43,216 nucleotides of DNA from UHGV virus genome UHGV-0353264; one strand, given 5' to 3'. The stretch comes from a virus. Below are positions 4,223-40,275 of this stretch, piece after piece. A program made the translations under genes and the position numbers. Position 1 is the stretch's first letter, and every line of letters begins with the position of its first letter. The notes under the pieces are model-generated. The model saw nothing but the letters and a program-made list of their open reading frames with translations, had not been told where the DNA came from and did no database searches.

Positions 4223-5020
4223 ATGCCCCTGGCGAAAATATTTACAAAGCAAGTTTCTTTATTAACTATGTTTTCAGCGTTAGCTTATGCGATGGCATAT
4301 TATTTTCAGAAAGGTGTCGCATCGTATTATGGCTATCCAGACCTTTTTATTAAAATAGACTTAAATACGCTATTGTATTCGGCTGTGTGGCTTTTGTTTT
4401 TTAGTTTTTTATTTCTCGGCGCCTTATATGCGGCGTTGATGTTTGATTTGAAAGGAAAATATTATGTTCCATTTATTGTATTTATAGTTGTTATGCTAAT
4501 GGCTAATATTTGTATAATAGGATTTCATTGGCCTTTTGGTTATTTCTCCGAAACTTCTGTGATGAGTGTTCAGGATATTTTATTATTTGCTATGCTTTTG
4601 TTGAATTATCACAATGTGGTGTCTATGCCAATCCATAGTAAGAGACACGAACATCATATGGAGAGCATTAGAAAATTTGGGAGGCTTGCAGAGTATAAGA
4701 ACGTATTTTATTATATCGATTTAAAAATCCTAAAGTCAGCTTTTCCTTTAGGGGTGATAACGTTGTTGATATTGAGCTATACATTCGGGAAGGTTACTGC
4801 ATTTAAAAATAACGAATATTATATGGTAGATGGTAGTAATACTAAAGTGTTGCTCAATTCATTTGGTAGTGGTTTTGTTGTTGGTGATTGTGAGTCAAAT
4901 AGCGCAAAATTTGAATTTGTTAATGATTTAAAAGGGATGAGATTCACAATCATGTCCTCTAAAAAGGAAATAGCTAAATTAAAAGAGTGTTTCGAAATAC
5001 GTGTTAAAAATACGGATTAA
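4223..5020 (+). CDS. AT-rich multi-pass membrane protein of unknown function (moron)
   Basis: 265 aa, about four hydrophobic segments N-terminally and a soluble C-terminal domain; strongly AT-rich; opposite strand to flanking replication genes; good RBS. Confidence 0.6.
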   Translation: MPLAKIFTKQVSLLTMFSALAYAMAYYFQKGVASYYGYPDLFIKIDLNTLLYSAVWLLFFSFLFLGALYAALMFDLKGKYYVPFIVFIVVMLMANICIIGFHWPFGYFSETSVMSVQDILLFAMLLLNYHNVVSMPIHSKRHEHHMESIRKFGRLAEYKNVFYYIDLKILKSAFPLGVITLLILSYTFGKVTAFKNNEYYMVDGSNTKVLLNSFGSGFVVGDCESNSAKFEFVNDLKGMRFTIMSSKKEIAKLKECFEIRVKNTD

Positions 5021-5320: not shown

Positions 5321-5514
5321 TAGCTTTCGCCTTCCTGCTTTTTGCGTTTCTTCATGCAGATAGCGCAGTTCTCAGGATGGTCATGCCATTCATCAATCCT
5401 GATACCTATGAACATCCATTTTCCGCATAGTGATATGGCTTCCCCCGAATTAAAGAAATGTGCTTTTTTTGACAGAGCGGGGAACCCCCAACCCTTATTA
5501 TCGATATTAGACAT
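5320..5514 (-). CDS. Small Cys/His-containing hypothetical protein
   Basis: 64 aa ORF in operon orientation between the TIR-like gene and VRR-NUC; no recognisable family. Confidence 0.4.
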   Translation of the reverse strand: MSNIDNKGWGFPALSKKAHFFNSGEAISLCGKWMFIGIRIDEWHDHPENCAICMKKRKKQEGES

Positions 5515-5699
5515 CGTCCACCTCCTTACGCTTTTCGCGCATGTTCTGCATCAGACAAAAATCAAACCGACGTTCGCTTTGGCCCAGACCTGCATCGCCC
5601 GGTCGTACCCGCCGGACTGTTCAAGGTGCAAAGCCTCCCGCACAGTCCGGTAATAAAGCGGACTGTCCCGGTATTTAAATGACATAGGGTTTTTATTCC

Positions 5700-5730
5700 C
5701 AAATAAAAAACCCCGCGATGCAGGGTTGTA
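5700..5730 (-). terminator. Weak terminator-like hairpin downstream of the TIR-like gene
   Basis: Minus strand reads accctgcatcgcgggg followed by tttttt; stem is short, so low confidence. Confidence 0.3.
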
Positions 5731-5748: not shown

Positions 5749-6510
5749 TTACGAGGAAGCGTTAGCTATTTGAGCTTGTGTAAATTCGAAACCAGAATTT
5801 TGTAACCGTTGCACTAGACGAGGAACTGTTTCACGTACATGGTCGTTGAAATTCAGATACAAAATCCCGTTAGCATCAGAAGGCTGTTCTAGATGCTGTT
5901 TCTGAAGGATTGCTACATTGCTGCGCCCTAAGGACGAAAGAAGCATACCCATCTCGAGTACAACGTTCTGTCTTGCGCGGGGTTGGATTTCTGCTTCACC
6001 GGCGCGCTTTGAGTATCCCATATCATCAGGTGTCAAAAGAACAATCCCGAAACGGGTAGCAGTTTGTCCTTGCCCAATTTCACGTTCAAGCTCTTCAATA
6101 ATGGTGAGTCCAGTCCCTCCCGTATTCTGCAAAATGAAATGGTCTGGTAATCCAAGTTTATGAAGGATTAGCTCAAGTTGCTCCTTTGCAGTATGGTCAT
6201 GGCCGTGAACAATGAATATCTTTTTGGGGAGCTCAGATGGCTGTTCTACGGCTAGTGGTGTTGCCGTGGGCGGCGTTCCTAAATGGGTCATTATTGCAGT
6301 TTCAACATTGGGACGTTCTTGAGGGTTACCTTGAAACTGAATGGTCCGGGTGGTGTAAAGGTTAACAATTACGCCATTCGTTAAACGATAGCAGTCACAA
6401 GTCTCACGCTGTTCGTGGGAAAAATTGGTGAACCCACACTCCCTCAAAAAGTCAGGAAAAGATTCTCTCGGGTATGGATAGGTGATCGGCATTTCAGTTA
6501 GTTCCTGCAT
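5749..6510 (-). CDS. TIR-like domain nucleotide-binding protein (PF10137-like C-terminal domain) with unknown N-terminal domain
   Basis: 253 aa; C-terminal KKIFIVHGHD...FGIVLLTPDD...ARQNVVLEMGMLLSSLGRSNVAILQK matches the TIR-like signature as recalled. Lower GC than flanking polymerase; possible own promoter (ttgata in the 64-bp gap after the polymerase gene). Confidence 0.6.
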   Translation of the reverse strand: MQELTEMPITYPYPRESFPDFLRECGFTNFSHEQRETCDCYRLTNGVIVNLYTTRTIQFQGNPQERPNVETAIMTHLGTPPTATPLAVEQPSELPKKIFIVHGHDHTAKEQLELILHKLGLPDHFILQNTGGTGLTIIEELEREIGQGQTATRFGIVLLTPDDMGYSKRAGEAEIQPRARQNVVLEMGMLLSSLGRSNVAILQKQHLEQPSDANGILYLNFNDHVRETVPRLVQRLQNSGFEFTQAQIANASS

Positions 6511-6574
6511 AAGTATTGTTCCTTTAATTTACTCGAATTCAGCATGTCGCCATAGCTCGATAAGGTGAGTTATA

Positions 6575-8638
6575 TCAATCTTTTTTGTAGTGGTACGCCT
6601 CAAAACCGCCAGCGTTCAGTGGGATATCGGGCGCCCATTCGGGGTCAGTGGAGAGAAGCGCGGAAAGCGCTTTATCGTTGAAATCTTCTGTGTCAGGTGC
6701 TTCGGTGATCACCTCGTCGTGTACCGTCAGCACAATGCTGTAACCGGCATCTTCGATAAGCGGCATGTTTCCGGCCAGAATGTCGCGGGCGGCCGCCTGG
6801 GTGATGTTCTCCACCAGCTTTCCGCCGTAGGTTTTGAGTCGTTGCCATTTACGCGAATAAGAGTTAACCCCCATGTAGGTGATATTCCCTTTTTCGATAA
6901 CCGGAGACGGGTAGCATACAGCGCGTCCTGATGGTAGCTGTATGCGCAGCCACGCGCCATCGCGGCGGATTTTAAGATAACCGCAATACAATGTTTTTTG
7001 CGGTGTGGCGATTGCAGTGCGGACGGTGCGCTCCAGTTCGTACCAGAAATCACAGGTCGCGGGATGCGCCCGGCGCCAGAGACGTTTAAGTGAGTCGCAG
7101 GCGATAAATACCCGTTCAGAAAGCCCGTAGGTTGACTTGCGTTTAACCGATTCGTCGTACCAGCTTTTCGCCTCGCGGATAACATCGCGGGGAATGTTTG
7201 GTAGTGCGGCGTTCGCCAGCTCGTCGAGATCGAGACCGTAAACCAGTGCAAAAGTGATGAAGGCCGACACACCACCACCATAACCCAGACCGAGTTCCAT
7301 GACTTTACCGATCTGACGCATGTGTTTATCAACATCATCTGGTGCAATATCGAAAGCTTTTGCATACGCCAGTTTATATAAGTCCGGACCCGTTCCGGCG
7401 TCGTACTCTCTGAATGCATTCAGTTTCCATTCTTCTCCCGCCAGCCATGCCAGCATACGGCCTTCAATGTTCGACAAGTCACTTACCACCAGCTTTTTGC
7501 CTGTTGGCGCGATAATGCAGCCACGTAACGCTGAACTGGTTAGTTCCATGATATTGTCAAACAGCAGGTCTGCACATCCGGCTTTCAGTGCTTCGATGCC
7601 TTCGTCTATTTGTTCCTGTTTTAGTGAAGGGCGGGGAAGGTTCTGGGGCTGGAATAGCCGTCCGGCCCAACGACCGGTACGTGACGCCCCGCAGAACTGT
7701 AGCGTACCGCGTAAGCGCCCGTCGTGGCTTACGCCTTTCATCAGTGCCTTGTATTTACTGGTGCTGGTAGTACTGGCCTGCAGGCGGATAGCCAGCAGTT
7801 CTTTCACGGCAGATGGTAAATCGGGGTCGGCAATACGACGTTCCAGAGTACTGCGTTGCATGTCTGGTAGCTCCACACCGTAGGATTCAACAATGTGCTT
7901 AATCAACGCGTCTCGTTGTGTGGCTGCCTGCACTTCGCCATCAGTCATTTCCTGTGTACGCTTTGCCAGGCGCTTTTGTTCCTGGTCTACCGCGTCGATC
8001 GCAGCGCGTGCGAGTTCCACGTCCATGCAGACGCCCCGGTCATTGATCTGCTGATCACGATGCCAGAGCGCCAGTTCTGTCCCCTGATAATTCCACTTCG
8101 GCAGACGTTTATAGACTTCGCGCATTGCCTCGATATCCAGTCCGGCGTAAGCAACAAAGCGCCGCCATTCTTCCGGGTGGGTTTTGCTGGTGGCTCGGCG
8201 CAGTTTGCTGTTTTTCGGGCGTGGCTTACAGAACAGCTGGATCAGCGCTTTACCTTCTTTGTCCTTCGCTTTGTCTTGCGGGACGCCTAGTACTTCGCAG
8301 AGTTCCCCCAGAGACCCCGGGAGACCGTGCGCCAGCGCCTGCACCATTGTGTCGCGCCAACGTTCGACTGGCGGTGCCAGGCGCGGCATTGCATAACGCA
8401 GAACGGTGCGGTCGAAGTGAGAGTTATGGAAATAAAGCAGGGTTTCAGGGTCTGCGATTGCTTCGTATAAGCCGTGTGGAATACCACCACCGGCAGTGAT
8501 ATCCCACACGTTTACTGGCCCGTCGTTGATAGCCCATGCGAAAAGCATCACTTCAACGCCTTCGGCATACGCATGGGTACCGTTCGTAATAGGGATTTCG
8601 CAATAGGTTTCCAGGTCGCCCCATAGTATATTGGACAT
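6575..8638 (-). CDS. Family A DNA polymerase with N-terminal 3'-5' exonuclease
   Basis: 687 aa; exo motif WGDLET, polymerase motifs [16 protein letters not shown] and [10 protein letters not shown]. Confidence 0.9.
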
Positions 8639-8684: not shown

Positions 8685-9314
8685 ATGCATATGATCCAAT
8701 ACTTGATTGACCATACAGAGCATCTGGAGAAAATAGCTGGATATATTTTTTCATGTTTGATTGTTATGGGAGTCTGGATAAGAAAGATCATTTTTAATTA
8801 TAAGTATAAAGAGCCTAAATATGTTAAGAAGTTAATTTTATATTTAGTTAAGTATGAACGTTATCTGGATGAGGAGGATAAGAGTGCCATAGAAAAAAGA
8901 ATAAATGATAAAATTATTCGTGATGCGCTGAAATTGCAATCCTCTTATAACCGAAGAGATGTTATTTACATTTGCAATAGATTAGACAAAAGACAGTATA
9001 TAAATCAGTTGGTTAAGCTTCAGAATTATATAGAGAAAGATAACGGAGTGTTTTTTATTAATGTTGATTTTTCAGGTTTTTTATTTATTATTAGTCGTCT
9101 GTTTTCCTTTCTGTGTTTTGTGCTGTTTACCCTTTTTTCTATTATCTGCATTATTTCCATAGGGCAAAATGAAGGCCTTTTAAATTATCTTGTGTATATG
9201 GTTATGATAATAGTTTTAGAGACTGTTGGTTTTTGGATGTATGATACTTTCCCGTCTAAGAAAAAGATCTGTGAACTAAATAAAGAATTGAGAAAGATTA
9301 AGATTCCTGAGTGA
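8685..9314 (+). CDS. AT-rich membrane protein of unknown function (moron)
   Basis: 209 aa; one N-terminal and two C-terminal hydrophobic segments; Lys/Tyr-rich; very AT-rich; opposite strand to the replication operon. Confidence 0.55.
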   Translation: MHMIQYLIDHTEHLEKIAGYIFSCLIVMGVWIRKIIFNYKYKEPKYVKKLILYLVKYERYLDEEDKSAIEKRINDKIIRDALKLQSSYNRRDVIYICNRLDKRQYINQLVKLQNYIEKDNGVFFINVDFSGFLFIISRLFSFLCFVLFTLFSIICIISIGQNEGLLNYLVYMVMIIVLETVGFWMYDTFPSKKKICELNKELRKIKIPE

Positions 9315-40258: not shown

Positions 40259-40275
40259 TTGCAAAGTAACTTTAT

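Follow-up and report, generated by a model that had tools for sequence, protein, structure and literature searches.

The window analyzed here is the whole stretch of 43,216 nucleotides (nt) of the UHGV virus genome UHGV-0353264, on which all positions below are numbered, and our subject is the gene at 5749..6510 on its minus strand, which encodes a TIR domain protein of the PADLOC candidate family PDC-S35. The window corresponds with 100% identity to the Escherichia coli IAI1 chromosome (NC_011741.1) and holds a complete prophage of ~40 kb, integrated beside yfhL and shoB. The gene is an intact open reading frame (ORF) of 253 amino acids (aa) with an ATG start, entered in RefSeq as WP_001157067.1, "TIR domain-containing protein." It lies inside the early replication module of the prophage and is oriented like the rest of that module, where the order is DUF2800 nuclease, Enc34-type SSB, family A DNA polymerase, TIR gene, frameshifted ANR gene, a 64-aa ORF, VRR-NUC nuclease, SNF2 helicase, and integrase. 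The features of the gene and its immediate surroundings are listed below.

5749..6510, minus strand: complete TIR ORF, 253 aa, member of PADLOC PDC-S35 and of phrog_16442
6277..6489, minus strand: N-terminal domain with TBP-like fold, aa 8-78, topology beta-alpha-beta4-alpha, proposed sensor or regulatory head; conserved R42, Y52, T56, Q60-G61, and R66
6223..6276, minus strand: variable linker, aa 79-96, of low model confidence (AlphaFold confidence score, pLDDT, <50 at residues 80-93), its length varying in the alignment
5845..6222, minus strand: TIR domain of the Cap12/PycTIR clade, aa 97-222, from PF10137 and the alignment to SfSTING
5953-5955, minus strand: codon of the putative catalytic Glu186
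5752..5844, minus strand: conserved C-terminal helices, aa 223-253, after the Pfam TIR match and inside the PDC-S35 model
6511..6574, minus strand: 64-bp gap from the polymerase stop codon to the TIR start codon, with a Shine-Dalgarno-like AAGGA and without a convincing sigma-70 promoter
5699..5727, minus strand: intrinsic-terminator-like hairpin (5727..5709) and T-tract, 22 nt past the TIR stop codon
5689..6586, no strand assigned: optional cassette as defined against an empty-slot prophage (898 bp for 14 bp), taking in the last 12 nt of the polymerase gene
6575..8638, minus strand: family A DNA polymerase, the upstream neighbor
5507..5685, minus strand: ANR-family regulator gene, frameshifted in IAI1, the downstream neighbor

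An exchangeable cassette in the replication module

The carrier is a temperate E. coli prophage of myovirus type. The same gene, with 98.8% protein identity, is present in three induced phages (vB_EcoM-689R2, -611R5, and -606R2), and so this type of prophage makes virions. Among 50,697 phage records, the gene was present in only 3, which are closely related to one another.

Because related prophages show both presence and absence of the TIR gene and other occupants at its slot, we regard the gene as exchangeable cargo at a recombination hotspot. The replication module was found in ~158 of 5426 complete E. coli genomes, and in 47 of these 158 the TIR gene follows the polymerase, so that ~70% of the related modules lack it. 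All 47 listed genomes have an intact ORF, either at 95 to 100% identity or as a second intact allele: 37 copies are at least 95% identical to the IAI1 copy, and the other 10 represent the second allele, whose DNA aligns with the IAI1 copy over the TIR half only, at ~76%. Compared with a prophage that is otherwise 99.8% identical, IAI1 has the 898-bp segment in place of 14 bp between the polymerase and ANR genes; in that empty-slot prophage, the ANR gene begins 5 bp past the polymerase gene. The ANR gene itself (5507-5685, minus strand) is annotated as frameshifted in IAI1 and is intact in several related prophages.

In the remaining genomes, the interval from polymerase to VRR-NUC is empty or holds other cargo, namely an HATPase_c protein on the opposite strand, DUF4406, YfbU together with a hypothetical protein, or a small ORF together with a SAM methyltransferase (alternative-occupant loci L003 2882-3910, plus strand; L002 2758-3057, minus strand; and L013 1802-2868, minus strand). 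The HATPase_c occupant has 342 aa and a weak match to DISARM DrmA. At the TIR slot itself, a Serratia prophage of this type has a 70%-identical TIR gene, and a Salmonella prophage carries a TIR gene in a different slot of the module.

The base composition of the cassette is also distinct. The TIR gene has a G+C content (GC) of 45.5%, and of 40% at third codon positions (GC3), compared with 54.2% and 57%, respectively, for the polymerase gene and a GC of 52.8% for the VRR-NUC nuclease gene. Downstream of the gene, a stem-loop of 8 pairs (5727..5709, minus strand) is followed by TTTTATTTGG; the divergent allele in another E. coli prophage has a hairpin with a different stem sequence and an identical T-tract after it. 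An earlier note, made from the sequence alone, had described the gene as a moron inserted in the replication operon, with lower GC than the flanking polymerase and nuclease genes, a candidate promoter in the 64-bp gap, and a hairpin plus T-tract downstream. Presence and absence at a fixed site, distinct base composition, and a terminator of its own bear out this description, and the gap is real as well. The promoter is a different matter. A consensus scan found no sigma-70-like site in the gap, a relaxed scan of the 260 bp upstream of the TIR gene gave at best 7 of 12 matches, and, with the upstream regions of five homologs added, none of the six contexts contained a promoter match of at least 8 of 12. 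As none of these scans gave anything convincing, we do not endorse the candidate promoter. Because the cassette places its terminator between the polymerase gene and the ANR, VRR-NUC, and helicase genes, it could lower the expression of those downstream genes of the operon.

TIR domain and N-terminal head

The C-terminal part of the protein matches Pfam PF10137 (CAP12/Pycsar effector TIR) over aa 97-222, with an E value of 2.9e-31 and 108.4 bits against a cut-off of 24.7, and the match covers positions 1-118 of the 119 in the model, far more than chance would give. The assignment of a TIR-like domain in the earlier note, which had relied on a sequence signature and had named this Pfam model as a check, is thus well founded; all of the motifs that it quoted are present in the translation (KKIFIVHGHD, VLLTPDD, RARQNVVLEMG, and LGRSNV). 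By sequence profile, the nearest solved structures are those of Cap12 TIR-STING (9lmq and 7un8) and PycTIR (8jsj). As for the structure prediction and fold search that had also been proposed, TIR-STING ranked first when Foldseek compared the full-length model with the PDB, and the N-terminal domain was found to be TBP-like (see below). The full-length matches were weak (E of ~1e-3), owing to the floppy linker between the two domains of the model and to the moderate confidence of its TIR part. A fold search against viral structures (BFVD) returned nothing meaningful, with nucleoside 2-deoxyribosyltransferases among the weak matches.

In SfSTING, the NAD+ hydrolase (NADase) site comprises R78, N80, and the catalytic E84, with D110 supplied by the dimer mate (PMC9402430). 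A hidden Markov model (HMM) alignment places R180, N182, E186, and D212 of our protein at R78, N80, E84, and D110, respectively. An alignment of 57 homologs from many phyla (A1) shows no variation at E186, R180, and D212 and conservation of at least 90% at N182; in total, >60 residues are invariant across phyla. Synonymous sites are saturated between the two E. coli alleles, and therefore only the contrast in nonsynonymous divergence (dN) between domains is usable, not dN/dS. The TIR domains of these alleles share 89% aa identity (dN of 0.096), and the sequence comparison as a whole indicates that this domain is under strong purifying selection. It is likely, judging from the conserved residues, that the domain is an active NAD+-consuming enzyme that needs self-association, with the qualification that active-site residues cannot tell hydrolase from cyclase activity.

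For the N-terminal domain, the earlier note had seen no recognizable relatives, which proved wrong at the level of fold. Since the full-length fold search was poor, the N-terminal domain was modeled alone, and this solved the fold assignment: the AlphaFold model of aa 1-80, built from 28 homologs, has a pLDDT of 88 and the topology beta-alpha-beta4-alpha, and its best structural matches are domains of the RNase H3-N and RnlA NTD-NRD type. On the basis of this model, we assign the head a TBP-like fold with confidence, and homology to the RNase H3 N-domain and the RnlA NTD/NRD is probable. The claim of homology rests mainly on the fold, because a Pfam scan of 138 diverse carriers stayed nonsignificant. 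Sequence evidence leads independently to those two families, though short of significance. Among the 57 aligned members, there were weak Pfam matches to RnlA_toxin PF15935 in 11 (best E of 8.5e-4) and to DUF3378 PF11858, the model of the RNase HIII N-domain, in 3 (best E of 0.02), all of them under the gathering score.

According to published work, TBP-like lobes of this bacterial type bind duplexes and have a loop with a conserved aromatic residue (PMC7221094). In the head family, an aromatic residue at position 52 is 96% conserved, and there are conserved basic residues at positions 42 and 66. Direct nucleic acid binding by the head is doubtful all the same, because the domain is not basic. 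The head also evolves ~5x faster than the TIR domain, with 46% against 89% aa identity between the two E. coli alleles.

Heads of this family occur on other proteins too. A search of 1.84 billion representative proteins with the head profile gave 891 matches. In one protein of 617 aa, the head is followed by a dCTP-deaminase defense protein (PADLOC dCTPase, E of 7e-173, matching from model position 142), so that it takes the place of the first ~141 positions of that model, and two further fragments have the same fusion. A protein of 428 aa joins the head to a multi-transmembrane tail, and another protein consists of two heads in tandem without an effector. For the deaminase and transmembrane fusions, the ORFs are complete within their contigs. 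The head-bearing fusion and tandem proteins are P0202 (L104 3956-5809); P0172, P0239, and P0246 (L105-L107); and P0206. In addition, fusions of TBP-like domains have been reported for HEPN proteins of the RnlA family (PMC3710099) and for Schlafen nucleases (PMC13056530). In abortive-infection systems that consist of one protein, rapid evolution of the head and its exchange between toxic tails usually mark a sensor or regulatory domain.

Homologs, their neighborhoods, and RNase HI

The protein matches the PADLOC model PDC-S35 (PDLC05003) over its full length, aa 10-253 against model positions 3-245, with an E value of 7.1e-109; its PHROG match, phrog_16442, has no known function. The PADLOC defense candidates (PDCs) are a set of 145 that were predicted from their embedding within known defense systems (Payne et al., bioRxiv 10.1101/2024.01.29.577857), and the supplements of that paper do not mention PDC-S35. 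We found >2700 homologs with the ~250-aa architecture. Homologs occur in Proteobacteria, Acidobacteriota, Verrucomicrobiota, Chloroflexota, Bacteroidota, Chlorobiota, Planctomycetota, Cyanobacteria, Campylobacterota, Spirochaetota, Actinomycetota, and one archaeal metagenome-assembled genome. Most of them lie outside phages, in non-phage islands, conjugative elements, and defense islands. These neighborhoods, typical of mobile defense cargo, include an integrase-bounded island with Mrr and PemK, an integrative element of Vibrio cholerae, conjugative elements, and a Vreelandella island in which a DUF4062 gene comes straight after the TIR gene and a reverse transcriptase and two ParDE pairs lie beyond it (L016 7863-8543; L017 4933-5961). 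The Vreelandella island is a dense defense island, and a 2026 preprint reports DUF4062 as the "Evangelion" anti-phage family.

When all genes within 3.5 kb were clustered for 80 homologous loci, RNase HI emerged as the sole recurrent neighbor family, and there was no other fixed partner; the IAI1 prophage has no conserved partner either. A canonical RNase HI of 161-196 aa with intact DEDD motifs directly adjoins the TIR gene in 12 of the 80 loci. In 11 of these, it comes immediately after the TIR gene in the same orientation, separated from it by 3-10 nt or overlapping it (L028, L069, L070, L080, L082, L087, L089, L091, L093, L094, and L102), and in 1 it lies directly upstream (L086). The 12 loci span four phyla (Verrucomicrobiota, Chloroflexota, Acidobacteriota, and Bacteroidota), their TIR proteins do not form a single clade, and one of the loci is in a conjugative element. 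Their other flanking genes mostly differ, except in three related Chloroflexota loci. On the assumption that RNase HI is about one gene among a few thousand per genome, adjacency by chance would be expected at far below 1% per locus.

A precedent for such a link comes from experiments on RnlA, whose NRD domain associates with RNase HI; activation of the toxin requires RNase HI, and so does its silencing by the antitoxin (PMC5308261). The NRD is also the part of LsoA that is matched by the head profile. Given the adjacency of RNase HI genes and the dependence of RnlA on RNase HI through this domain, we therefore propose that the head may couple the effector to RNase HI or to the load of RNA:DNA hybrids.

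Part of this picture was already in place: public annotation has a TIR gene at this site, and PDC-S35 is already flagged as a candidate. Within the open-access literature, the recognition of the head as TBP-like, its occurrence on other effectors, the linkage to RNase HI, and the description of the prophage hotspot appear to be new; searches of that literature for TIR combined with TBP-like or RNase H3 domains found no study of PDC-S35-type proteins.

Proposed function, alternatives, and known systems

TIR NADases hold a central place in immunity, in bacteria as in plants and animals, and what switches them on is usually the open question. We propose that the prophage gene is a candidate for a single-gene anti-phage defense with an abortive-infection NADase core, a reading to which we give a probability of about 0.6. 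In the proposed mechanism, the C-terminal TIR domain would be an NAD+ hydrolase that is held inactive in uninfected cells, with the TBP-like head acting as the gate on this latent effector. A cue from a superinfecting phage would cause the protein to assemble, and neighboring TIR domains would then complete each other's active sites, as SfSTING does with D110 from the dimer mate. Depletion of NAD+ would abort the infection and so protect the lysogen population together with the prophage. The cue would most likely be tied to RNase HI, to RNA:DNA hybrid metabolism, or to both, and the solo E. coli gene would use the host RnhA. NADase activity, the defense phenotype, oligomerization, and the nature of the trigger are all things that we infer.

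A broader idea, which we put forward tentatively and consider rather doubtful as it stands, is that the head is a portable module that reports RNase HI or RNA:DNA-hybrid status to suicide effectors, among them TIR NADases, dCTP deaminases, proteins with membrane-spanning tails, the HEPN RNases RnlA and LsoA, and Schlafen nucleases. PDC-S35 might then be a guard-type immune protein, set off by phages that disturb RNase HI or fill the cell with hybrids from replication or transcription, and the RNase HI genes that some lineages carry beside it could, just as speculatively, serve as a built-in cofactor or safety catch. If it is true, the guard idea would extend the so far isolated observation on RnlA and RNase HI to a broader sensing principle. 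A real link to RNase HI or to hybrids would supply a directly testable trigger, an explanation for the dependence of RnlA on RNase HI, and a sensor module that is reusable across classes of effector. The PDC-S35-type protein is also attractive as a minimal TIR system in a single polypeptide, with a head of 70 residues, a distribution over >10 phyla, and a tractable E. coli prophage as its host.

Several observations weigh against these proposals. No RNase HI gene adjoins the E. coli copy, and the same holds for 85% of the loci (15% have one). Against PDB sequences, the head profile ranked RNase HIII and LsoA first and second, though with sub-threshold E values of 0.066 and 0.13, and each of PF15935 and PF11858 reached E<0.01 in just 1 of the 138 diverse members. 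The head is neutral to acidic (net charge of -4 here, family median of 0), which is a poor fit to direct nucleic acid binding, and the AF2 model of the TIR part is only moderately confident (pLDDT of 50-80). The TIR gene points the same way as the early replication operon, and no promoter of its own is recognizable, while a defense encoded by a prophage needs expression in the lysogen. Finally, open-access papers and preprints contain no study of PDC-S35 or WP_001157067.

Defense is better supported than anti-defense, because the match to PDC-S35 is full length, homologs lie in non-phage defense islands and conjugative elements, and the N-terminal domain is fused to other toxic effectors. As a counter-defense enzyme, the protein would be expressed early for the benefit of the phage itself, to destroy or pre-empt host immune signals derived from NAD or nucleotides or to manipulate NAD+ pools. 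A gene that runs in the direction of the replication operon and starts 64 bp past the polymerase gene, with no promoter of its own that could be identified, would suit this role, and the prophage type does yield virions. We consider it unlikely because the homologs, in many phyla, are distributed mainly over non-phage, conjugative, and defense islands, because the sister proteins with a dCTP deaminase or a transmembrane effector are typical suicide effectors, and because the gene is so rare in phage records. Furthermore, the catalytic residues of the TIR domain are those of an NAD+-consuming effector, and TIR NADases are under-represented in viruses (PMC9503650). At the other extreme, the gene might be decaying or neutral cargo without a current function in the IAI1 prophage. 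The frameshift in the adjacent ANR regulator gene and the lack of a promoter in our scans would fit such a state, but we find it very improbable, as it is contradicted by the strong purifying selection: the ORF is intact in every one of the listed E. coli genomes, the TIR domain has diverged little in amino acids despite synonymous saturation between the alleles, and dozens of its family's residues are invariant across phyla.

Two further alternatives keep an enzymatic role for the TIR domain and change its product or substrate. The protein could be a ThsB-like producer of a signal, such as a messenger of the cyclic ADP-ribose type, for an effector encoded elsewhere. Bacterial TIR domains can generate signals, and the active-site residues are compatible with hydrolase and cyclase alike; however, neither the prophage nor the 80 loci have a conserved ThsA-like, SLOG, Macro, or caspase-like partner, and both sequence and fold group the domain with the effector TIRs of Cap12 and PycTIR rather than with ThsB, so that we give this explanation a small chance. 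Alternatively, the TIR domain could act on nucleotides or nucleic acids other than NAD+, for example as an N-glycosidase on (modified) nucleotides or in an RNA- or DNA-directed activity guided by the TBP-like head, perhaps in the service of phage DNA metabolism. The likeness of the head to a duplex-binding domain (PMC7221094) speaks for this, as does the company kept by related prophages, which carry DUF4406 between polymerase and VRR-NUC and Nmad5 and methyltransferase genes in the replication module. The TIR fold is, moreover, related to that of nucleoside 2-deoxyribosyltransferases (PMC9503650), the enzymes weakly returned by the viral fold search. Yet the NAD+-binding and catalytic residues of SfSTING are conserved, homologs are mostly found outside phages, and the gene is dispensable for the prophage, as its absence from most related modules attests, and we think a substrate other than NAD+ improbable.

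The replication module has other variable slots. One, between the SSB and polymerase genes, holds in this prophage an ORF at 8685-9314 (plus strand; 29% GC, 209 aa, phrog_10579) with no Pfam or PADLOC match; elsewhere, it is occupied by a DUF4145 (HEPN) gene in a Serratia prophage and by a 270-bp ORF in other E. coli prophages. Another, between the helicase and VRR-NUC genes, holds an ORF at 4223-5020 (plus strand; 32% GC, 265 aa), whose hydrophobic stretches suggest a membrane protein and which has no family match; in other prophages, this slot contains a DUF6338 protein, unrelated hypothetical proteins, or a DNA cytosine methyltransferase. Both ORFs run on the strand opposite to the replication module. 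At the far end of the prophage, past the tail fiber genes, an acyltransferase-family gene (~40274-41341, minus strand) and a hypothetical gene (41916-42563, minus strand) are possible lysogenic-conversion cargo. Counting the TIR slot, cargo is exchanged at three sites of the replication module in this common family of E. coli prophages, and these sites are a practical place to look for further defense genes.

As a genomic arrangement, the cassette resembles phage morons and prophage defense hotspots such as those of P2 and P4 (PMC9122126): the gene is optional, differs in base composition, ends in a terminator of its own, and occupies a fixed site flanked by conserved phage genes, where related prophages have varied cargo. 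Unlike those hotspots, the slot lies inside the early replication operon of an Enc34-SSB/PolA-type prophage, and its gene is co-oriented with the operon and has no autonomous promoter that we could find.

As a protein, it is a member of PADLOC PDC-S35 from which nothing structural sets it apart, a single gene without a fixed partner. It is not Cap12, PycTIR, or Thoeris, because the defining domains or partner genes of these systems are missing. Membership in CBASS Cap12 was rejected since the protein reaches 34.8 and 30.5 bits with the NCBIfam Cap12 equivalogs, over the TIR part only, where the cut-off is 450 bits, and there is no STING domain; no CD-NTase is nearby, and no nucleotidyltransferase is annotated anywhere in the prophage. 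Membership in Pycsar PycTIR was rejected likewise, as the PADLOC PycTIR match (E of 1e-8) covers aa 132-234 only, with no match to a cyclic nucleotide monophosphate-binding domain and no PycC cyclase gene in the prophage. As for Thoeris, a ThsA-type effector (SIR2/SLOG or transmembrane/Macro) is absent from the prophage, and none recurs in the 80 loci.

The likeness to these systems is therefore one of parts. PycTIR (8jsj) has a TIR domain of the same Pfam family, and the match to it is confined to that domain. Cap12 (TIR-STING, for example, SfSTING; 7un8 and 9lmq) shares PF10137, is the closest in solved structure and in sequence, and has the conserved R78, N80, E84, and D110; activation of its NADase by oligomerization is likely a shared logic. 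Unlike Cap12, whose sensor is a C-terminal cyclic-dinucleotide receptor (STING), the sensor here would be N-terminal and of TBP-like fold. Toward this regulatory end, the N-terminal TBP-like substrate-binding domain of RNase H3 (RNase HIII; PDB 4py5 and 3vn5) is a counterpart, although here it comes without an RNase H catalytic domain, and as the head is not basic, hybrid binding is not assured. The RnlA and LsoA toxins (RNase LS), which are HEPN RNases with a TBP-like NTD and NRD, differ in their effector, which here is a TIR domain, in having two TBP-like lobes rather than one, and in the RnlB-like antitoxin gene, which is absent here. By analogy, the effector end of the PDC-S35 protein probably works like Cap12 or PycTIR, and it is RnlA that the protein resembles at its regulatory end.

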